Below, piece by piece: positions 9,813 to 48,867 of a stretch of DNA of 64,000 nt. This DNA is from Escherichia phage vB_Eco_F26. Every line of letters starts with the position of its first letter. The stretch's first letter is position 1. The position numbers were made by a program, and so were the translations under genes. The notes under the pieces were generated by a model. It ran no database searches and was not told where the DNA came from. It was given only the letters and a program-made list of their open reading frames with translations. Location: the sequence record OP870145.1. One strand, written 5' to 3'.

Positions 9813-10283
9813 TTAATCATGTTTCCACACCCCATCGGTATTTGACCAAAGCCGCTGATTATCTGATCCTCTCCACAGCTTTTTAGTCGGAAGATTTTTC
9901 TCATACTTCCCATCAATAATAACATCAACATATTTAAGCATTTCTAGTTGTTTAATATCTTCAAACTTATATCCTGTCCACAACCAAATGCTTTTATTGG
10001 GATAAAGATTTTTTACTGTTTGAACGATGCAATGAATCACGTCTCTGTTATCAGGATAAAGAGGGTCACCTCCGGTTATAGTTAATCCTTCTATATAATC
10101 ATTATTCAAACATTCAATTAATTGTTCTAGTGTTTCACCAGTGAATGGAACGCCATTTCTAGCATTCCATGTTGATTTATTATAACACCCTTCGCATTTA
10201 TGCAAACAACCTGTAACGAAAAGAACGGTCCTGCATCCAGGACCATTAACAAAGCAGCACGGGTATATTCTGTCATAATTCAT
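9813..10283 (-). CDS. nrdG: Anaerobic ribonucleotide reductase activating protein (radical SAM)
   Basis: CxxxCxxC cluster motif (GCLHKCEGC); 156 aa from the second Met, the length recalled for T4 NrdG; adjacent to nrdD. Confidence 0.88.
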   Translation of the reverse strand: MNYDRIYPCCFVNGPGCRTVLFVTGCLHKCEGCYNKSTWNARNGVPFTGETLEQLIECLNNDYIEGLTITGGDPLYPDNRDVIHCIVQTVKNLYPNKSIWLWTGYKFEDIKQLEMLKYVDVIIDGKYEKNLPTKKLWRGSDNQRLWSNTDGVWKHD

Positions 10284-11110
10284 AATAATATCCAATTTTT
10301 CCAAGCTTCATCAGTAGAATTACAGCGTTTTAGTATAAGATGTCTAGAAACTTTTATGGCATTTGAGCACTTTTTAATTGAATCATATTTAATACCGTCA
10401 ACTGAAACGGTTTTGCTAGTTGGAGAAATTTTTCCATACATTGGATTTTTTGAACCAACTTGAAGTCCTTTTAAAGCTTTTGAAAGCTTTTGTCTAGATT
10501 CCAATGACATGGGAGAATTCTTTTTACCTTCAATAATTCGCTTGCGATGAAGTTCGCGTTCTTCTTCACTCAAAGAATTGTAATATTTTTTAACACCGTT
10601 TGATATAGATAATTTATCTTTCTCAGACCGCTCTCCAGCTAATTTACTTCTAACATCTTTTCGCTTCATAGCTATGCTTACAGCTTTATTTAAATTTGCT
10701 TGATGCTCTGGCGTACGTTTATATTTCTTTAAAGCACGTGAAATAGCTATTTTAGTTTCTTCTGTTCTCTTTTTACCTTTATTTGCTAAACTATTTTTGC
10801 GGCGATGCTCAAGTGTCTGTTCATAGGCAGTTCCACCTTTTCCACCAGGTTTAATATTATATGTGTTTTCTTTTAGACAATACTCTTCGGTTACAAGTTC
10901 AGCTTCTTTATCATACATTTGTTTTTCATTATCAAAAACATGTAAAATTTCTTTATTAAAATTTTTTCTACCATATTTTAATAAAGCGGCACGAATCAAT
11001 GTTCCTGATCCCATATAACCGTCATTTATGTTATCGGTGCTATGCGCACCGATATATTCCTTTGAATTAATTATATTTGTTATTTTATAAATTATATAAT
11101 ACCTATGCAT
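10280..11110 (-). CDS. GIY-YIG homing-endonuclease-like protein (free-standing, between nrdG and nrdD)
   Basis: 276 aa; N-terminal YYIIYKITNIINSKEYIGAHS GIY-YIG module; repeated basic DNA-binding-like modules in the C-terminal half. Confidence 0.65.
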   Translation of the reverse strand: MHRYYIIYKITNIINSKEYIGAHSTDNINDGYMGSGTLIRAALLKYGRKNFNKEILHVFDNEKQMYDKEAELVTEEYCLKENTYNIKPGGKGGTAYEQTLEHRRKNSLANKGKKRTEETKIAISRALKKYKRTPEHQANLNKAVSIAMKRKDVRSKLAGERSEKDKLSISNGVKKYYNSLSEEERELHRKRIIEGKKNSPMSLESRQKLSKALKGLQVGSKNPMYGKISPTSKTVSVDGIKYDSIKKCSNAIKVSRHLILKRCNSTDEAWKNWILL

Positions 11111-12400
11111 GTTTTACTCGTTTTACCATTTCTTTCATTTTACCTAAATTCCATGGAACAACGCTAGGAGTTCCAAGATATCCGCATGTTCTTCTTATTG
11201 TGTTCATCTTTTTAGGATCAGTTTCTCCACAAATAGAACAAACAAATCCGTTTTCAGTAGGAGTCATTTCATGGGTACTTCCACATGTAAAACATTTATC
11301 TACTGGCATATTAACACCAAAATAATCTAAATGTTGTGCAGCATAATCCCATACGGCCTCAAGGCCTTTCAAGTTATTTTTCATATCAGGAAGTTCAACA
11401 TAAGAAATGTGACCACCTGTCGCAATGAAATGATACGGAGCTTCGCGAGAAATCTTTTCAAACGGAGTAATATTTTCTTCTACTGAAACGTGGAAACTGT
11501 TAGTGTACCAGCCTTTATCGGTAACATCTTTTACACTTCCATATTTTTCGGTATCAAGTTTACAGAAGCGATAGCACAGGTTTTCAGCAGGAGTAGAATA
11601 CAAACTAAAAGCAAAACCGGTTCTTTCAGTCCACTGCTTAAGACGAGCATTCATTTTAGTCAAAATTTCCTGTCCAATATCACGACCGACAAGAATATTC
11701 AATTCGTGAATACCAATGTATCCTAGGGATACTGAACTTCTACCGTTTTTAAATAACTCAATTATGTCATCATCAGGTTTAAGACGAACCCCGAATGCAC
11801 CTTCTTGGTAAAGAATAGGAGCAACAGTAGCTTTAACTCCTTTTAAGGAACTAATTCTACACATCAAAGCTTCAAAACACAGGTCCATTCGCTCGTCGAA
11901 CAATTCAGTAAATTTCTGTTCATTGAACTGTGTTCCAATATAAGAATCTAACGCGATGCGAGGAAGATTCAGTGTTACAACGCCAAGATTATTACGACCG
12001 TCAAGAATTTCATTACCGGTCGAATCTTTCCATACGCTCAAGAAACTACGGCAGCCCATTGGAGAAACTGGAACTGAAGAACCAGTGATAGCTTTATTGT
12101 TCTTAGCTGAAATAATATCAGGATACATTCTTTTGCTTGCACATTCTAACGCAAGTTGTTTAATATCATAGTTTGGATCATCTTTATAAAGATTAACACC
12201 TTCTTCAACAAACATAACAAGTTTAGGAAAAATAGGAGTTATTCCATCACGACCAAGACCTTTAATGCGGTTTTTAAGAATTGCCTTCTGAATCATTCGT
12301 TCGGTCCAATCGGTTCCTGTACCAAATGTAATTGTTACAAAAGGCGTTTGTCCGTTTGAACTAAAAAGAGTATTTACTTCATCATTATATTCAGCATGAG
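11103..12400 (-). CDS. nrdD: Anaerobic ribonucleoside-triphosphate reductase NrdD, exon 2 (C-terminal ~430 aa); 5' boundary approximate
   Basis: Glycyl-radical motif RRTCGYLG and C-terminal Cys cluster; gene interrupted by an intron carrying an endonuclease ORF, as in T4 nrdD (sunY). Confidence 0.85.
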
Positions 12401-13430
12401 TCGCAAATTCATGCCCGTTTATATGAAACAACAAAATTTGGATAGTCCATAGATATGCAACGTTCTTTTATAGCGCTAGGATGAAAATTTAGCGCTTTAG
12501 CTGCTTCTATATAAGACGTATACTTAATACCGTCAACAACCACATATTCAGGAACTTTATGAATAGTAGTCTTAATACTCAAAACAAGAGGATGAGTTTC
12601 GACTTCACTTTCAGTGCAATTTAAATATTCCGCTGCTTTTTTAAAACTTCTAAAAGTTTTATTTTTAAGCTTTATCGATACTTGTTTTTTACTTTTTCGA
12701 CTATTGATATTATTTTGCACATGTTCCTTAGATCTTCCGTTTTTAGCATAATATTCAGCTACAGAAGATTTTATATTGTTTTTATGAGATTCGGATAACA
12801 CTTTACCCTTATGAGCATCTCTTAATTTTTGAATATGTTCTTCAGTATCCGGATGCTTATAAAACTTTTTACCGCCTATGGATTTATTTAAACATTTTTT
12901 GCTATAAAAATATTTACGTATGACCTCTTCTTCATGTTTTAATGCATCTTTATAACTATCAAATGTTTTTAAAATTATCCATTTAGTAGGTGTATCAGTT
13001 TTTAAGCGTTCATTTATATACTTAGATGACGTTGTGTAAGTTTTCCAGTTTGTGGGCTTGTTTTTAATTGTTCTAAATTTTTTATAACCGATATAAATGT
13101 CGCCATTAGAAAACTTAACTAAGTATGTAAATGCGTCTTTATCTTTTATTTTAGTACAACGTCTTTTTATCCATTTCATTGTTTCACCTCGTATTCATAA
13201 GATAATCTTATTTATACAAGATGACTGCTGCATGTCGCCATGCAGATTAGACTATATCTTCATCTTTCGATGCCGGCCGTTTCGAATAGCATTAGCTTCT
13301 ATTCTACACCGCTACATTCATCACGGTTAGTCGTTAGGCATTTAGTTCAAAAGAACATTTAGCACGGGATTGTCTACTAGAGAGGTTCCCCGTTTAGACC
13401 GGTTTTACATGAGCCTGAATTAAATTAACT
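12400..13430 (-). mobile_element. Group I intron in nrdD (approximate bounds) carrying a GIY-YIG endonuclease ORF
   Basis: About 1 kb separates the two nrdD coding segments; contains a 256-aa GIY-YIG ORF and a ~240-nt ORF-free structured region (13180-13420). Confidence 0.75.
12409..13179 (-). CDS. Intron-encoded GIY-YIG homing endonuclease (I-TevII-like)
   Basis: 256 aa; FTYLVKFSNGDIYIGYKK GIY-YIG module; lies inside the nrdD intron. Confidence 0.7.
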   Translation of the reverse strand: MKWIKRRCTKIKDKDAFTYLVKFSNGDIYIGYKKFRTIKNKPTNWKTYTTSSKYINERLKTDTPTKWIILKTFDSYKDALKHEEEVIRKYFYSKKCLNKSIGGKKFYKHPDTEEHIQKLRDAHKGKVLSESHKNNIKSSVAEYYAKNGRSKEHVQNNINSRKSKKQVSIKLKNKTFRSFKKAAEYLNCTESEVETHPLVLSIKTTIHKVPEYVVVDGIKYTSYIEAAKALNFHPSAIKERCISMDYPNFVVSYKRA

Positions 13431-13965
13431 CATACGCCTGGAATGCATCGTATACGTCTTTTTCTGTTTTAGATTGAGCATAATTCAACGCATCAGCGAT
13501 TTGCCATTTTTCTGCATCCTCAATATGTTTTGCATAGGTGCGTTTAACATAAGGAGAAAGTACTTTATCTACATTCGCAAAAGTCGTTCCGCCGTATTGG
13601 TGAGAAGCAACCTGTGCAGTAATTTGTGCCATAATTGCAGTAGCAACACCGATTGATTTAGGAGTTTCAATCTGTGCATTACCGAGCTTAAATCCGTTCT
13701 CAAGCATTCCTTTTAAATCTACTAAACAGCAATTAGTAAAAGGCAATGATATACTGTAATCTAAATCATGAAAATGAATTAATCCAACATTATGGGCATT
13801 TACAATATGACTTGGAAGAATACGACAAGCGATATGTTTAGAAACAATACCGGCCATTAAATCTCTTTTTGTTGGAAAGACGCGAGAATCTTTGTTGGCG
13901 TTTTCTGTATTTAATTCTTTATCTTTATTTGAAATAAAATTTAAAACATCTTTCTCTAAAGACAT
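13430..13965 (-). CDS. nrdD: NrdD exon 1 (N-terminal ~175 aa); 3' boundary approximate
   Basis: Open frame upstream of intron; sum of the two segments about equals the ~605 aa recalled for T4 NrdD. Confidence 0.8.
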
Positions 13966-14777
13966 AATTCTAATTTATCCTTTTGAAATTCTTCGTCTAA
14001 ATATGGGTTCCAACCCATTTTAAACCTTTTGATGAAATTATCAATTCTAAATTTCGGTAAGTTTAAATCCGCAAAAATAGATGATTTACTTTTAAAATCT
14101 GGACCTAAATAATCATATAAAATTTCTGCGTATTTTAACCATAATATATAAGTACCAGATTTAATTGCTCTCGGAGTTTTCCAAGGTTTTACACCATACA
14201 TCGGATTTCCACTTCCTTTATGCCTGATAGAAGATGAAATTCCAATTTTAATTTTAGCTTCCTTTGTGTGCGAAAATCCATGATGCGGATTTTCTTTCCA
14301 GTATTTTTTAGAAGCTTCTGATATTTTCTTTCTGGCTAAATTAGTATGATGCTTTCCATAAAATCCATGATTTTTACCTTTATTACGATTTCTTTTAATC
14401 ATGGTTATTGATTGCTTTTCTCTAGTTTCTTTAGAAGGAGAAATACCATACGTTGTAAATTGACCGTTAGCATATGCTAAATTGAAATACTCTTTATTCC
14501 ATATATCTTTTTCTATATTCTTTTGAAATTCAGCTTCAATGCTAGTTATTTGTTCATCTCCGACTAATTGAAAATATAATATTTCAACTTTCGGCGTTTC
14601 TTTCAATAGAGCTTTTTGAAATTCAGAAGATGACGAAGACGAATAATAAAATTTACCATTTTTATCAATAATATTCGTTCCATCAAAAGTGCAATTAGTT
14701 TTACTTCCAATGTAATAATATGGCGGGGTTTTAGCATTAATTCTATTAATAAATGATAGTTTATATACTACATTCAT
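13956..14777 (-). CDS. GIY-YIG homing-endonuclease-like protein (free-standing, between 49 and nrdD)
   Basis: 273 aa; VYKLSFINRINAKTPPYYYIGSKTN GIY-YIG module; repeated G-x-x-HG-like modules. Confidence 0.65.
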   Translation of the reverse strand: MNVVYKLSFINRINAKTPPYYYIGSKTNCTFDGTNIIDKNGKFYYSSSSSSEFQKALLKETPKVEILYFQLVGDEQITSIEAEFQKNIEKDIWNKEYFNLAYANGQFTTYGISPSKETREKQSITMIKRNRNKGKNHGFYGKHHTNLARKKISEASKKYWKENPHHGFSHTKEAKIKIGISSSIRHKGSGNPMYGVKPWKTPRAIKSGTYILWLKYAEILYDYLGPDFKSKSSIFADLNLPKFRIDNFIKRFKMGWNPYLDEEFQKDKLELCL

Positions 14778-15247
14778 TTTAAACTCTTTCTAAGCTGCTT
14801 CTTAAATGAAGCTATTAACTGTGTTTTAGTGTCAGATTCATTATATTCAAATCCTCTTTGAAGCATCTCAGCCATCATTTCCTCTTTTCCTAAACGAGAA
14901 AATTCCTTTGATTTATCTCCAACGAAGTTAGGGTGAATATTATTTTGGGTGTAATCGGATTTTAAATAAGTAAGTAAATTTTCTAACCATTCAAGATAAT
15001 CAACACCTTGTCCCTTTAAGCCAGAACGATTAAATTTATGCTTCATTTGACCTTCTGCGGCATTGCAGAGATTACAAAGCAATCCACGTACCTTTCCTGC
15101 TTTTGGTCCATTTAATTCATGGTCATGGTCGAGGTGATTAGCTTGAACATCAGGATTTAGTTCTCGTTGGCAAATTAAGCATTTACCATTTTGTGCATCA
15201 TAAAATTTCTGTTTTTCTTTTTTATATAATTTGCCAGTCAATAACAT
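14774..15247 (-). CDS. 49: Endonuclease VII (Holliday junction resolvase)
   Basis: 157 aa; MLLTGKLYKKEKQKFYDAQNGKCLICQRELNPDVQANHLDHDHELNGPKAG... matches recalled T4 gp49. Confidence 0.95.
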   Translation of the reverse strand: MLLTGKLYKKEKQKFYDAQNGKCLICQRELNPDVQANHLDHDHELNGPKAGKVRGLLCNLCNAAEGQMKHKFNRSGLKGQGVDYLEWLENLLTYLKSDYTQNNIHPNFVGDKSKEFSRLGKEEMMAEMLQRGFEYNESDTKTQLIASFKKQLRKSLK

Positions 15248-32170: not shown

Positions 32171-32491
32171 TTATTCTTTAAATCTAATCAATTTATTCAT
32201 AGACTTTGAAACTTCTGCACGAACCTCATGTAGATTTTTGAGCTGTTCAAGACGCTGCTCATAGTAAGCAATTTCATCTTCTTCGAGACAGTCCTGTGAA
32301 TCTTCTTTAAGATAGCGTGCATAGTCCTGGAAAGCGTTACGGACTACTTCCTGGAAATCATCAAGACTTTGAATTTTCTTAGGAGCAACAGATACACGAC
32401 GAGGGGCAGTATAATACTCATAACCAAACCCTGCGCTTAATTGAGCCATTAATATTTTTCCTCTGGTTGGAACACAGCACGACAAGCCCAC
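32171..32491 (-). CDS. Hypothetical protein
   Basis: 106-aa ORF. Confidence 0.45.
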
Positions 32492-32751
32492 ATACTGGCT
32501 TCTTTGAGTTTCGTTTTAGCAATAGTTAACTGATCGAGGCTTTCGGCATAATTCTTCGCGAATTCACAGTCTTCACAATTATCTAGTGCTTCCCAGAATT
32601 CATCGTATAAAGCATCAAAGATAAGTCCTAAACGAACTTCAGCGTCTTTGATGGCATTCACTTTACCGATTTTCTTTTCAGTATGCGGCTTATAACCCTT
32701 AATATCTTCAATCATATTTGACTTCCTCACCAGTACATAAATCATATTCAA
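32449..32751 (-). CDS. Hypothetical protein
   Basis: 100-aa ORF. Confidence 0.4.
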
Positions 32752-32929
32752 CTAAACGAATAGGTTCATGAATGCCATATCCCTGAACAGAAATTTCTGT
32801 AGTAGGATAAATTCCATCAATATCACCCATGTTCCATGCTTCGTTAAATTGCTGTTCGCCTGAATTACTAAACCATTCGGCGAAAGCATTTAGCACATCT
32901 TCAGAACCTTCAATAATTATCTTTGCCAT
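32708..32929 (-). CDS. Hypothetical small acidic protein
   Basis: 73-aa ORF. Confidence 0.4.
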   Translation of the reverse strand: MAKIIIEGSEDVLNAFAEWFSNSGEQQFNEAWNMGDIDGIYPTTEISVQGYGIHEPIRLVEYDLCTGEEVKYD

Positions 32930-33291
32930 TACAAACTCTCGGTAAAGGTACGAGCAATAACGTCGCGTTGCTGTTCCGGAGTCAGAGAGTTAAAGCGAAC
33001 TGCATAACCGGATACACGGATGGTCAGCTGCGGATATTTTTCCGGATGCTTAACTGCATCTTCCAGAGTTTCACGACGCAGAACGTTAACGTTCAGGTGT
33101 TGACCACCTTCAATTTTAACTGTAGGCTGTTGCTCAATTTCAATTTCACGGGCATGCAAACCGTAGAAAATTTCTGGGTCTACAAAAGAGTCCTCTTTAA
33201 AGGTTTTAGAGACAATAATTCGTGCTTGAATACCATCTTCAAAATAAATAGTACCTTTATGTGTGCCTTCAAGAATTTGATATGCTTTCAT
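32929..33291 (-). CDS. Autonomous glycyl-radical cofactor (GrcA/YfiD-like)
   Basis: 120 aa; C-terminal ~65 aa ([61 protein letters not shown]) matches recalled E. coli GrcA/PFL C-terminus including the RVSGY glycyl-radical motif. Confidence 0.8.
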
Positions 33292-33298
33292 ATAAACC

Positions 33299-33679
33299 TC
33301 AATTAAAAAATAAATTTATCCAAGATTGTTCTTTAATTAAAAATGGCTCAGAATCATATGCCATTAAACTCTGTGTGATTAGTCCTTTAAAAGGCCCATC
33401 AATAAATTCCATGGTAAAATATGGAATTTTATTCATTAGCCGTGCATTAGGAGCAGTACATAAAACTCTGCATCCTTTGAATACACCCTTTTGTAATTTG
33501 TATTGCTTGGGATAAAATTCGCTCAAAATGTTATTATTCGCTAAAATTTCAAAATGATTCACCAATTTATTTTTAATAGTTTTTGGTGAAAAATAGAGAT
33601 ATTCGAAAAGCTGTGCGTCTGTCATCATTGCATTCCGATTACGAAAAACTGTGGACGAGTAATACCACCAATGCAACAT
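33299..33679 (-). CDS. Hypothetical protein
   Basis: 126-aa ORF. Confidence 0.4.
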
Positions 33680-34164
33680 TTACTATTGCAACAGTACTGT
33701 ACAGTGTCAATATGAGCATCATAAATCTTATCCATATCAGGAGATTTGACAGGCTCGTCAATTATATACAAAATTCGCGAAAGCGATAAACCTCTGAACT
33801 TGCTTCCTTTATTACCAATAAAACTGCGCACAGAATCAGTAAATAAACGAAAACGTATATCATCATTAGAATAACGCGAAAATTCCTTTTTAATGTCATC
33901 TGCGGAATTTTTAGCATAAACTGAAGTATTAGAAAGAACAATAACTGTTCCGCCATCATACAACCAGTTAGCAGCGAAGTTAGTCACAGCAATTGATTTA
34001 CCGGATTGACGTCCACCATCTATACGAAGTGTGCAATACTGCTTAAGTAAGTCTTCAAATGGCGGGATATATTCGTTTTTACAAATTTCTTCTACTCTAG
34101 CATCAGAATGGTGTGTAAAAGCATTCATCAGGGATAGATAAGGACCAGTTAAAAATGTTCTCAT
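33625..34164 (-). CDS. P-loop NTPase-like hypothetical protein
   Basis: 179 aa; Walker A-like GGRQSGKS and Walker B-like ILYIIDE; occupies the position where T4 has denV. Confidence 0.45.
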   Translation of the reverse strand: MRTFLTGPYLSLMNAFTHHSDARVEEICKNEYIPPFEDLLKQYCTLRIDGGRQSGKSIAVTNFAANWLYDGGTVIVLSNTSVYAKNSADDIKKEFSRYSNDDIRFRLFTDSVRSFIGNKGSKFRGLSLSRILYIIDEPVKSPDMDKIYDAHIDTVQYCCNSKCCIGGITRPQFFVIGMQ

Positions 34165-34220
34165 TTAGTTTCTCTTTTAGGTTGGGCCATTCCTTGGCGC
34201 ATGAATTGTCCATTTCTGTA

Positions 34221-34275
34221 TTTACCCCTCCAAGTAATTATGAATATACTATCACAATTCTAGGAGAAAGTAAAC
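34221..34275. repeat. Promoter-containing direct repeat, copy A (flanks IP cassette)
   Basis: caagtaa-t-tgaatatactatcacaattctaggagaaagtaaac shared with 34611-34665. Confidence 0.7.
34246..34275 (-). promoter_or_regulatory. Early promoter (-35 GTTTAC / -10 TAGTAT)
   Basis: Part of a ~45-bp repeat also present at 34611-34665. Confidence 0.5.
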
Positions 34276-34277
34276 TG

Positions 34278-34580
34278 TTATTTACCTTTAATTACTTTAG
34301 CTGCTTCGATAGCCGCTTGCTGAAGGTCATCCATAGACATACCGAATTTAGAAGCAAAGTTATCAATTTTCTTTTCGACAGCATTCAAAGGCTTGGCCTG
34401 TTTACCTTCATTAGCGCCAGGAAGAGCGAGAATACGCTCTTTGTCAATATAAAGGCTTACAAGTTTCTTACGGTCTTTATCGGACAAATCATGAAATGAA
34501 TGGGCCTTTTTATTTATAGCGGCTTCTAATTTACCTGCACTCACTCGCGCTTCAGTAATAAATTCTTGATATGTTTTCAT
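34278..34580 (-). CDS. Internal-protein (IP)-like capsid-injected protein with capsid-targeting sequence
   Basis: 100 aa; N-terminus MKTYQEFITEA matches the T4 IP capsid-targeting consensus with an LxE-type protease site. Confidence 0.7.
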   Translation of the reverse strand: MKTYQEFITEARVSAGKLEAAINKKAHSFHDLSDKDRKKLVSLYIDKERILALPGANEGKQAKPLNAVEKKIDNFASKFGMSMDDLQQAAIEAAKVIKGK

Positions 34581-34610
34581 ATGTTTCCTTTAAATATTTT
34601 AATTAATAAT

Positions 34611-34665
34611 TTATCTATTCAAGTAACTGTGAATATACTATCACAATTCTAGGAGAAAGTAAACA
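34611..34665. repeat. Promoter-containing direct repeat, copy B
   Basis: Same ~45-bp element as 34221-34275; contains -35 GTTTAC. Confidence 0.7.
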
Positions 34666-34668
34666 ACT

Positions 34669-35199
<531 letters not shown>

Positions 35200-46520: not shown

Positions 46521-47111
46521 ATGCTCTTTACATTTTTTGATCCGATTGAATATGCGGCCAAAACGGTGAATAAAAACGCGCCGACTATTCCTATGACAGA
46601 TATTTTTAGAAACTATAAAGACTATTTTAAACGTGCTCTTGCGGGATACCGCTTACGTACTTATTATATCAAAGGTTCACCACGCCCGGAAGAATTAGCA
46701 AATGCTATATATGGAAATCCACAGCTGTATTGGGTTTTATTGATGTGTAATGATAATTATGACCCGTATTATGGATGGATTACTTCACAAGAAGCTGCTT
46801 ATCAAGCATCTATACAAAAATACAAAAACGTAGGTGGAGACCAAATAGTATATCATGTGAATGAGAACGGTGAAAAATTTTATAATTTAATATCATACGA
46901 TGATAATCCATATGTTTGGTATGATAAAGGCGATAAAGCTAGAAAATATCCTCAATATGAAGGAGCACTTGCTGCGGTCGATACGTATGAAGCGGCTGTT
47001 CTTGAAAATGAAAAACTTCGTCAAATAAAAATAATAGCAAAATCAGACATCAATTCATTTATGAACGACCTTATACGTATAATGGAGAAATCTTATGGAA
47101 ATGATAAGTAA
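46521..47111 (+). CDS. 53: Baseplate wedge protein gp53
   Basis: 196 aa, same length as T4 gp53; first gene of the plus-strand baseplate operon. Confidence 0.88.
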   Translation: MLFTFFDPIEYAAKTVNKNAPTIPMTDIFRNYKDYFKRALAGYRLRTYYIKGSPRPEELANAIYGNPQLYWVLLMCNDNYDPYYGWITSQEAAYQASIQKYKNVGGDQIVYHVNENGEKFYNLISYDDNPYVWYDKGDKARKYPQYEGALAAVDTYEAAVLENEKLRQIKIIAKSDINSFMNDLIRIMEKSYGNDK

Positions 47112-48867
47112 TAACCTCAACTGGTTTGTTGGTGTTGTTGAAGATAGAATGGACCCATTAAAATTAGGTCGTGTTCGTGTTCGTGTGGTTGGTCTGCATC
47201 CACCTCAAAGAGCGCAAGGCGACGTAATGGGTATTCCAACTGAAAAATTACCATGGATGTCAGTTATTCAACCTATAACTTCTGCAGCAATGTCTGGAAT
47301 TGGAGGTTCTGTTACTGGACCGGTAGAAGGAACTAGAGTTTATGGTCATTTTTTGGACAAATGGAAAACTAACGGAATTGTCCTTGGCACGTATGGCGGA
47401 ATAGTTCGCGAAAAACCGAATAGACTTGAAGGATTTTCTGACCCAACTGGGCAATATCCTAGACGTTTAGGAAATGATACTAACGTACTAAACCAAGGCG
47501 GAGAAGTAGGATATGATTCGTCTTCTAATATTATCCAAGATAGTAACTTAGACACCGCAATAAATCCCGATGATAGACCGTTATCAGAAATTCCAACCGA
47601 TGATAATCCAAATATGTCAATGGCTGAAATGCTTCGCCGTGATGAAGGATTAAGACTAAAAGTTTATTGGGATACCGAAGGATATCCGACAATTGGTATT
47701 GGTCATCTTATCATGAAGCAGCCAGTTCGTGATATGGCTCAAATTAATAAAGTTTTATCGAAACAAGTTGGTCGTGAAATTACAGGAAATCCAGGTTCTA
47801 TTACAATGGAAGAGGCGACGACTTTATTTGAGCGTGATTTGGCTGATATGCAACGTGACATTAAATCACATTCTAAAGTAGGACCAGTCTGGCAAGCTGT
47901 CAACCGTTCTCGCCAAATGGCATTAGAAAATATGGCATTTCAGATGGGTGTTGGCGGTGTAGCTAAATTTAACACAATGTTAACTGCTATGTTAGCAGGA
48001 GATTGGGAAAAAGCATATAAAGCCGGTCGTGATTCATTGTGGTATCAACAGACAAAAGGCCGTGCATCCCGTGTTACTATGATTATTCTTACGGGAAATT
48101 TGGAATCATATGGTGTTGAAGTGAAAACCCCAGCTAGGTCTCTATCAGCAATGGCTGCTACTGTAGCTAAATCTTCTGACCCTGCTGATCCTCCTATTCC
48201 AAATGACTCGAGAATTTTATTCAAAGAACCAGTTTCTTCATATAAAGGCGAATATCCTTATGTGCATACAATGGAAACTGAAAGCGGACATATTCAGGAA
48301 TTTGATGATACCCCTGGGCAAGAACGATACAGATTAGTTCATCCGACTGGAACATATGAGGAAGTATCACCGTCAGGAAGAAGAACAAGAAAAACTGTTG
48401 ATAATTTGTATGATATAACAAATGCTGATGGTAATTTTTTGGTAGCCGGTGATAAAAAGACTAACGTCGGTGGATCAGAAATTTATTACAACATGGACAA
48501 TCGTCTTCACCAAATAGATGGAAGCAATACAATATTTGTGCGCGGCGATGAAACTAAGACGGTTGAAGGTAATGGAACTATCCTAGTTAAAGGTAATGTT
48601 AAAGTAGTTATTCAAGGAACAGCAGATATAACTGTTGAACAGGAAGCATACATAACTGTTGAAAAAGACACGACTGTTAATGTTAACCAAAACGCAGACA
48701 TAAGTGTTAAAAATAAAGCAACTGTTAATGCTGAAAATATGGATGTCAACGTTGAGCAAGATTTAAATTTTTCAGCGACAAATATTAATTTAAGTGCATC
48801 TAATACTGTTCATATGGATGGCGGGGTTCTTTCTAAAGTATCAGGTGGAAACGTACAGGTTGGTTAA
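47095..48867 (+). CDS. 5: Baseplate hub / cell-puncturing protein with lysozyme domain gp5
   Basis: 590 aa; MEMISNNLNWFVGVVED... OB-fold N-terminus, central T4-lysozyme-like domain (MAEMLRRDEGLRLKVYWDTEGYPTIGIGHL), C-terminal repeat-rich beta-helix. Confidence 0.93.
   Translation: MEMISNNLNWFVGVVEDRMDPLKLGRVRVRVVGLHPPQRAQGDVMGIPTEKLPWMSVIQPITSAAMSGIGGSVTGPVEGTRVYGHFLDKWKTNGIVLGTYGGIVREKPNRLEGFSDPTGQYPRRLGNDTNVLNQGGEVGYDSSSNIIQDSNLDTAINPDDRPLSEIPTDDNPNMSMAEMLRRDEGLRLKVYWDTEGYPTIGIGHLIMKQPVRDMAQINKVLSKQVGREITGNPGSITMEEATTLFERDLADMQRDIKSHSKVGPVWQAVNRSRQMALENMAFQMGVGGVAKFNTMLTAMLAGDWEKAYKAGRDSLWYQQTKGRASRVTMIILTGNLESYGVEVKTPARSLSAMAATVAKSSDPADPPIPNDSRILFKEPVSSYKGEYPYVHTMETESGHIQEFDDTPGQERYRLVHPTGTYEEVSPSGRRTRKTVDNLYDITNADGNFLVAGDKKTNVGGSEIYYNMDNRLHQIDGSNTIFVRGDETKTVEGNGTILVKGNVKVVIQGTADITVEQEAYITVEKDTTVNVNQNADISVKNKATVNAENMDVNVEQDLNFSATNINLSASNTVHMDGGVLSKVSGGNVQVG

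Follow-up and report, generated by a model that had tools for sequence, protein, structure and literature searches.

Vs.6 of Escherichia phage vB_Eco_F26: a phage-encoded GrcA whose 3′ half appears to have been overwritten by host grcA

Introduction

What use would a virulent phage have for a GrcA/YfiD-type glycyl-radical protein, and from where did it acquire the corresponding gene? Both questions are raised by a small open reading frame (ORF) in the genome of Escherichia phage vB_Eco_F26 (sequence record OP870145.1), of which we analyzed a stretch of 64,000 nucleotides, referred to in the following as the window. The initial annotation had interpreted this ORF as a recently captured copy of the host GrcA protein, situated near the phage genes for the anaerobic ribonucleotide reductase (RNR) and repairing oxygen-damaged pyruvate formate-lyase (PFL). 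The explanation for which we argue here, and which we hold as a whole to be highly likely, is that of a phage GrcA that would indeed repair PFL, and that is encoded by an old phage gene whose 3′ half has been overwritten by host grcA.

Results

The ORF corresponds to gene vs.6 of phage T4

Judged by its sequence and its genomic position, the ORF is the T4-type gene vs.6, a phage-encoded GrcA, from a Tequatrovirus genome. Its features are listed below.

32929..33291, minus strand: vs.6/Y06I-type gene; ATG-to-TAA ORF of 120 amino acids for a 13.9-kDa autonomous glycyl-radical cofactor (GrcA homologue)
33007..33009, minus strand: GGT, encoding Gly95; radical site predicted from the RVSGYAVRF motif and the alignment to 6OWR/PflB
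33297..33300, minus strand: Shine-Dalgarno sequence GAGG, 5 nt 5′ of the vs.6 ATG; upstream sequence AATTGAGGTTTAT-ATG
32927..32931, minus strand: TAATG, overlap of the vs.6 stop and the vs.5 start; the two genes, part of a run of tightly packed genes, are predicted to be translationally coupled

The RVSGYAVRF motif covers residues 92-100 of the ORF, with Gly95 as the predicted radical glycine, equivalent to Gly102 in GrcA and to Gly734 in PflB. The ORF possesses its own ribosome-binding site, start and stop codon and hence encodes a stand-alone small protein in the size range of GrcA/YfiD; its Shine-Dalgarno sequence shares nucleotides with the stop codon of vs.7 (ORF 33299..33679). Over the surrounding 2.7-kb stretch, the identity amounts to 96-97% with Tequatrovirus genomes and to 95.6% with T4. 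In phage T4T, the gene order is vs.1, regB, vs.3, vs.4, vs.5, vs.6, vs.7, vs.8, and tblastn searches recovered the T4 neighbor genes in the window in the same order and with 94-100% protein identity, the vs.5 product being 100% identical to the T4 protein. The position of vs.6 between vs.7 and vs.5, upstream of vs.4 (Acb2), vs.3 and regB, is thus conserved. The ORF itself shares 98% of its nucleotides and 119 of 120 amino acids with vs.6 of T4 (T4T locus T4Tp120, ADJ39837.1), and it matches the orthologous group of T4 vs.6, phrog_1209, over its full length (residues 1-120 against profile positions 1-121, E=5.7e-63). The exact protein is already public in many phage genomes as 'autonomous glycyl radical cofactor'. 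A scan for promoters and terminators around vs.6 returned nine promoter-like sites where 10.4 were expected.

The orthologue of vs.4 (32449..32751, minus strand), second gene in the downstream direction from vs.6, carries the Pfam Acb2/Tad1 hairpin domain PF24729 (E=5e-19), which denotes the anti-CBASS family of cyclic-nucleotide sponges. Gene vs.6 is consequently found amid small counter-defense and host-takeover genes (regB, vs.1, vs.3-vs.8).

Vs.6 represents a phage branch of the GrcA family

Residues 60-101 of the ORF match the Pfam Gly_radical domain PF01228 with E=2.5e-18 and 67 bits (cutoff 22.2), and the best match among solved structures is E. coli GrcA (6OWR; E=9e-42, ORF residues 22-120). 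Residues 61-120 are identical to residues 68-127 of GrcA, and residue 60 is an isoleucine where GrcA possesses a valine. E. coli PflB (1H16/2PFL) is matched with E=5e-26, ORF residues 58-120 corresponding to PflB residues 697-759. The best NCBIfam model for the ORF is TIGR04365 (spare_glycyl), residues 20-120 aligning with positions 25-126 of the 126-position profile. Its score of 154.9 bits stays below the equivalog cutoff of 170 because the N-terminal half is divergent, and we have therefore filed the ORF as a phage branch of the GrcA family and not as a strict equivalog. When the N-terminal parts of phage and host GrcA proteins are aligned on their own by hhalign, they match with a probability of 95.7% (E=8.6e-9, 58 columns, 28% identity); by this profile comparison, the N-terminal half of Vs.6 is homologous to that of GrcA.

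These data bear out the initial annotation in its reading of the protein. The last 60 residues, RVSGYAVRF included, are those of the C-terminal glycyl-radical module of E. coli GrcA; the Pfam, 6OWR and TIGR04365 matches identify a phage-encoded protein of the GrcA/YfiD type; and the matches to GrcA and PflB cover the whole glycyl-radical domain and thus more than a short motif. We also considered a chimeric protein in which a host C-terminus would be joined to a phage N-terminus of unrelated descent; this reading is ruled out by the homology of the N-terminal parts (hhalign, 95.7%).

Vs.6 has in common with E. coli GrcA/YfiD (P68066; NMR structure 6OWR) that it is a small stand-alone protein, with homology extending over nearly the full length, and the identical stretch (Vs.6 residues 61-120, GrcA residues 68-127) falls within the structured glycyl-radical domain (YfiD residues 61-127). 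It differs in being seven residues shorter, in an N-terminal half that is only about 28% identical, and in scoring under the NCBIfam equivalog cutoff; furthermore, its gene resides in the coupled T4 gene run of a virulent phage, whereas host grcA sits next to ung. The C-terminal glycyl-radical domains of PflB (residues 697-759; 1H16, 2PFL) and of TdcE possess the same fold unit with the RVSGYAVRF radical loop, and that of PflB is the part of PFL that is replaced by the spare part. Vs.6 resembles PflB clearly less than GrcA (E=5e-26 versus 9e-42), with correspondence to about 63 residues at the end of a protein of 759, and tdcE DNA matches ORF nt 181-354 at 77%. The C-terminal module of Vs.6 also matches the short GrcA2 and GrcA3 forms (NCBIfam NF008341 and NF038360; 78-80 amino acids), but these proteins are devoid of the N-terminal half of Vs.6, which scores well under both cutoffs (94/145 and 106/158).

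A predicted spare part for the pyruvate formate-lyase of the host

Wagner et al. (2001; BBRC 285:456) reportedly described the T4 protein Y06I as an autonomous glycyl-radical cofactor that reconstitutes O2-cleaved PFL. We take Y06I to be Vs.6, an assignment made by elimination because tblastn finds a single GrcA-like place in each of the listed T4-type genomes and because the size (13.9 kDa) fits. According to PMC8683613, which cites Wagner et al., two 'spare part' proteins have been validated, namely YfiD (GrcA) of E. coli and Y06I of T4. Both proteins are activated by PFL-AE, and their complex with oxygen-cleaved PFL restores activity. The fold of YfiD is carried by residues 61-127, which reproduce PFL residues 693-759; residues 1-60 are disordered, yet they aid the binding to cleaved PFL and the installation of the radical (PMC8683613). 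In the comparison of Nolan et al. (2006; PMC1524935), vs.6 was among the few T4 ORFs of unknown function that were conserved in all T4-like phages compared, and a Gly_radical match was noted for it. The role in PFL repair that had been assigned to the ORF at the outset consequently gains an experimental footing, as the function has been demonstrated for Y06I, which we equate with Vs.6.

The published biochemistry of a protein identical at 119 of 120 positions, together with the identity of the catalytic module, makes it in our view very likely that Vs.6 acts as a spare glycyl-radical domain for host PFL and is activated by host PflA. In the mechanism, which we adopt from studies of the T4 protein and of E. 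coli GrcA/YfiD, oxygen would cleave active PFL at its radical glycine, Gly734, and Vs.6 would attach to the cleaved enzyme. PFL-AE (PflA), the activase of the host, would then place a radical on Gly95 of Vs.6, whose C-terminal domain would substitute for the lost glycyl-radical domain of PFL, so that the conversion of pyruvate into acetyl-CoA and formate could resume. A reason for keeping a phage copy might be sought in the shut-off of host gene expression by T4, after which host grcA would no longer be inducible; with the phage copy, PFL activity and hence the supply of ATP from fermentation, of acetyl-CoA and of formate would be maintained under the low and fluctuating oxygen of the gut.

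Vs.6 might conversely be a decoy that soaks up PFL-AE or occupies PFL, and that thereby throttles or redirects host fermentation or outcompetes GrcA. Such a function would be compatible with a score under the GrcA equivalog cutoff and with the fact that the very half which in YfiD governs binding and activation is just about 28% identical to that of GrcA. However, Y06I is reported to restore the activity of cleaved PFL, and the catalytic module has been kept identical to that of the host, also through re-copying from the host, a pattern more in line with a functional part than with an inhibitor. We therefore regard the decoy function as very unlikely.

Still slightly less probable is a service of Vs.6 to the phage anaerobic RNR, either by replacing the radical domain of NrdD after its cleavage by O2 or by serving NrdG as a substrate. 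NrdD is likewise a glycyl-radical enzyme that is cleaved by oxygen, vs.6 and nrdD/nrdG are all present in the window, and Nolan et al. (2006; PMC1524935) suggested a role in nucleotide metabolism. The nrd genes of the window are located as follows.

9813..10304, minus strand: nrdG, 22.6 kb from vs.6
11103..12434 and 13420..13965, minus strand: nrdD, 19.0 kb from vs.6, with an endonuclease ORF in the interrupting stretch

A BLASTP comparison of Vs.6 with NrdD exon 2 of the window, which contains the Pfam Gly_radical domain, gave a best E value of 1.6, off the radical motif, and hence no similarity to this C-terminal exon; the module of Vs.6 is instead identical to that of GrcA and close to the C-terminus of PflB (E=5e-26), and the published biochemistry places Y06I with PFL and PFL-AE. 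The genes are moreover 19-23 kb apart: nrdD lies at a distance of 18,964 nt and nrdG of 22,625 nt, with many genes in between, so that the location 'near the anaerobic RNR genes' given in the initial annotation is inaccurate. The preferred reading, a spare part for PFL, would still connect vs.6 with these genes, metabolically and not by position: in most of the systems that have been studied, class III RNR uses formate as its reductant (PMC4493059, citing Mulliez, 1995), and formate made by PFL could thus feed NrdD.

The nrd region contains several endonuclease-like ORFs. One of the NUMOD3 type (10280..11110) follows nrdG, nrdD is interrupted by a stretch with a GIY-YIG/NUMOD1 ORF (12409..13179), and a further NUMOD3 ORF (13956..14777) adjoins the gene for endonuclease VII (14774..15247). 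The split of nrdD is presumably equivalent to that caused by the T4 nrdD intron with I-TevII.

The 3′ half of vs.6 carries a tract of E. coli grcA

At the DNA level, the ORF consists of two parts of different descent.

33114..33291, minus strand: phage-type 5′ half, ORF nt 1-178 (residues 1-59); divergent homologue of the GrcA N-terminal half
32929..33113, minus strand: host-derived tract, ORF nt 179-363 (residues 60-120 and stop codon); structured glycyl-radical domain, copy of E. coli grcA
32969..33113, minus strand: run of 145 nt without a difference from E. coli grcA, ORF nt 179-323

Over ORF nt 179-363, the identity to E. coli grcA amounts to 96.8%, and each of 5,426 complete E. coli genomes yielded a match; the same genome search yielded no DNA match to E. 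coli for nt 1-178, which are 73% identical to the corresponding region of Klebsiella phage KP179. The near-identity to the host that had been noted at the outset accordingly exists at the DNA level, in that tract only. The GC content amounts to 34% in nt 1-178 and 48% in nt 179-363 (window average 35%), and GC3 to 0.22 and 0.41, respectively. With KP179 as the phage relative and E. coli as the two parents, a maximum chi-square test positions the breakpoint in the interval from ORF nt 178 to nt 186 (none of 2000 permutations reached the observed value; Fisher p=9e-13), the informative sites being distributed 66:14 to its left and 2:26 to its right.

E. coli is the closest source of the tract among the enterobacteria sampled: the identity is 96-98% to E. 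coli, 89-91% to Citrobacter amalonaticus and lower to the others, on a scale where E. coli grcA and Salmonella grcA share 84% over the module. Constraint on the protein alone cannot explain this DNA identity, since Slopekvirus 150040 encodes the same 61 residues as the tract with 82.5% nucleotide identity and 31 of 61 identical codons. Lineages without conversion show equally fast divergence in the 3′ and the 5′ half (82.0% versus 82.5% in one example). The two halves of host grcA also diverge together across the Enterobacteriaceae, and the composition of the tract is host-like; we therefore assign the direction of transfer as from host to phage. In the Tequatrovirus/Mosigvirus lineage, which infects E. 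coli, the 3′ half of the gene appears to have been overwritten by E. coli grcA. Homeologous recombination (gene conversion) during infection would be the likely route.

All six differences between the tract and E. coli grcA are synonymous and fall within the last 40 nt; two of them, A at nt 324 and G at nt 354, are states found in other phage lineages, and the last two codons are of the phage type (AGT TTG or AGT CTA in phages versus AGC CTG in E. coli). The longest perfect run to E. coli grcA is 145 nt in the window and 178 nt in T4, and the 3′ end of the identical stretch differs among T4, Mosigvirus and the window. T4 vs.6 shares with the gene of the window the position between vs.7 and vs.5 and the 5′ junction with an E. 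coli-type tract; the two differ in a sole amino acid (P54 in T4, Q54 in the window protein) and in four additional synonymous differences in the last 40 nt of the window gene.

Differing 5′ junctions in some Mosigviruses, for which blastn matches begin at query nt 155 or 162, were considered and rejected. Base-by-base alignment reveals one junction, the longer matches resulting from extension through a partly matching CGTGAA.

A second conversion in Klebsiella phages

Klebsiella phages of the genus Jiaodavirus encode the TLLDAVEHPEKY variant of the module, which is typical of Klebsiella GrcA. The copies compared are given below.

Jiaodavirus 15882-6-4 (L098): 224-586
Jiaodavirus KP179 (L083): 1501-1863
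K. pneumoniae-type grcA (L099): 301-684

The K. pneumoniae-type grcA stems from metagenome contigs (L099-L101) whose encoded GrcA is identical to K. pneumoniae GRCA_KLEP7. Phage 15882-6-4 matches it in a perfect run of 131 nt that starts, at its 5′ end, at the same point as the E. coli-type tract, and its longest perfect run to E. coli grcA is 31 nt. A common 5′ junction is expected even if the events were independent, because DNA homology between phage and host begins only there. In a quartet consisting of the window, Jiaodavirus, E. coli and K. pneumoniae, the sites group as follows.

N-terminal half: (phage, phage)(host, host) 60; (E. coli phage, E. coli)(Klebsiella phage, K. pneumoniae) 1; third grouping 2
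C-terminal half: (phage, phage)(host, host) 2; (E. coli phage, E. coli)(Klebsiella phage, K. pneumoniae) 18; third grouping 0

At least 95% identity to E. coli grcA over the matched stretch was found in 505 phage records, and at least 95% identity to the K. pneumoniae module in 106. A Salmonella-type tract was not found in the phages, the best identity to the Salmonella grcA module being 83.8%. In all likelihood, the 3′ half of vs.6 has thus been converted by host grcA in at least two independent events.

The Jiaodavirus copies differ from one another mainly in the 3′ half (174 of 177 positions are identical in the N-terminal half, 172 of 183 in the C-terminal half), and the perfect run of KP179 to K. 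pneumoniae grcA amounts to just 44 nt, compared with 131 nt in 15882-6-4. These differing runs suggest that, within the genus Jiaodavirus, the host tract is not of one age or not from one donor. A further match to K. pneumoniae grcA (95.9%) is present at positions 262736-262905 of Klebsiella phage vB_Kpn_AM_K4 (PP355766.1; 288,685 bp). It starts at query nt 1, whereas the Jiaodavirus matches start at query nt 4, and the record is unusually long; it could stem from another type of phage whose host-like grcA is more complete, or else be a composite assembly.

Age and spread of the phage gene

Homologues of vs.6 were detected by tblastn in 1,591 phage records, ranging from Tequatro-, Mosig-, Jiaoda-, Slopek-, Pseudoteven- and Krischvirus to Aeromonas T4-like phages, T5-like phages and a jumbo Yersinia phage. 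The gene occupies the same place in Tequatro-, Mosig- and Jiaodavirus, and the N-terminal halves of the phage homologues can be aligned with one another. The two-part architecture of Vs.6 recurs in Slopekvirus, Pseudotevenvirus, Krischvirus, Tequintavirus/Epseptimavirus, the Aeromonas T4-like phages and the jumbo Yersinia phage, and the T4-like copies outside the Tevenvirinae possess a recognizably homologous N-terminal half (MKAYQILEG...ARIIVSKT). Copies outside the Tevenvirinae differ from the gene of the window in that they are devoid of a host-identical DNA tract; their identity to the sampled hosts at third codon positions, measured against the grcA set of 81 genomes, is about 0.5. Among grcA genes from these 81 genomes and 80 from metagenomes, no donor was found for the Slopek-, Pseudoteven-, Krisch- and T5-like copies, the best identities being 74-85%. 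By these comparisons, the copies outside the Tevenvirinae look like old, independently evolving lineages.

The host origin of the gene, which the initial annotation had deduced from its near-identity to the host sequence, can consequently be upheld in part. The 185 nt at the 3′ end appear to be recent E. coli DNA, but the gene itself is old and syntenic, and its N-terminal half groups with phages. A recent capture of the whole host grcA followed by fast divergence of the N-terminal half would account for the 96.8% identity of the C-terminal 185 nt to E. coli grcA and for an N-terminal half that is still recognizably GrcA-like. It is, however, at odds with the 73% nucleotide identity of that half to KP179, its near-random match to E. 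coli grcA and the abrupt switch at nt 178-186; with its quartet sites, 60:1:2 in favor of (phage, phage)(host, host); with the shared genomic place in Tequatro-, Mosig- and Jiaodavirus; and with the homologues in T5-like, Aeromonas and jumbo phages. We judge such a capture to be very improbable and hold, with considerable confidence, that vs.6 is an old phage gene of the GrcA family whose 3′ half has been converted by host grcA at least twice. That the host-identical stretch is an artefact of host-read contamination or chimeric assembly, as the sharp switch in GC content and identity inside one ORF might suggest, can practically be dismissed, because the same junction is found in independently sequenced T4 records (for instance X04567.1, a deposition separate from those of the complete T4-type genomes) and, with no less than 95% identity, in about 500 phage genomes, because the reading frame is continuous, and because the last codons are still of the phage type.

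Probably as a result of contamination or mislabelling, enterobacterial or T4/T5-type grcA sequences also turned up in records labelled as Enterococcus faecalis (a 60-amino-acid partial sequence), Vagococcus sp. WN89Y and 'Listeria phage LM 4-14-1'.

Significance of the sub-gene conversion

The existence of vs.6 and its biochemical role, published since 2001, are already known; the sub-gene, host-specific pattern of conversion is the sole part of our findings that may be new. We found no description of a sub-gene conversion of vs.6 in the literature searched, the coverage of which does not extend to key older papers. In terms of biology, vs.6 provides a textbook-grade case of a virulent phage equipped with a repair part for a host enzyme, and not a new kind of system; the 185-nt piece of host DNA in an old phage gene, with the version of another host in Klebsiella phages, adds an evolutionary detail.

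One could envisage vs.6 as a standing target of conversion, in which the grcA of each new enterobacterial host adopted by a lineage of the Tevenvirinae overwrites the 3′ half in an adaptive, recurrent resynchronization. Recurrent conversion of this kind would keep the radical module matched to the current host, synonymous sites included. If this were true, with selection for a fit to host PFL and PFL-AE or for host-optimal codons, vs.6 would offer a clear case of the sub-gene, host-specific re-synchronization of an auxiliary metabolic gene, and this in a phage that is strictly virulent and breaks down the DNA of its host. We put this idea forward tentatively and consider it rather doubtful. 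The conversions might alternatively be neutral by-products of the very active recombination of T4, and since the E. coli and K. pneumoniae modules differ at two amino acids only, the advantage gained from matching the host may be small. The tract in vs.6 constitutes a compact and countable marker for the frequency with which host DNA recombines into T4-type genomes, and a synonymously recoded vs.6 would be a simple experimental system for the rate of this recombination.

Further observations on the neighborhood of vs.6

Searches with tblastn found no match to denV (endonuclease V) and ipIII of T4 anywhere in the 64-kb window. In the region 33625..34700, vs.8 is directly followed by ipII (34278..34580) and the lysozyme gene e (34669..35163). 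The T4 Vs.8 protein is matched there in two reading frames, with amino acids 18-36 at 34226..34170 and amino acids 35-216 at 34173..33628; this split suggests a frameshift or a different start. A second region resembling T4 lysozyme (47614..48111, plus strand) is embedded in the ORF 47095..48867 and shares 44% identity with gpe over 166 amino acids, in keeping with the lysozyme domain of gp5, the baseplate hub protein.
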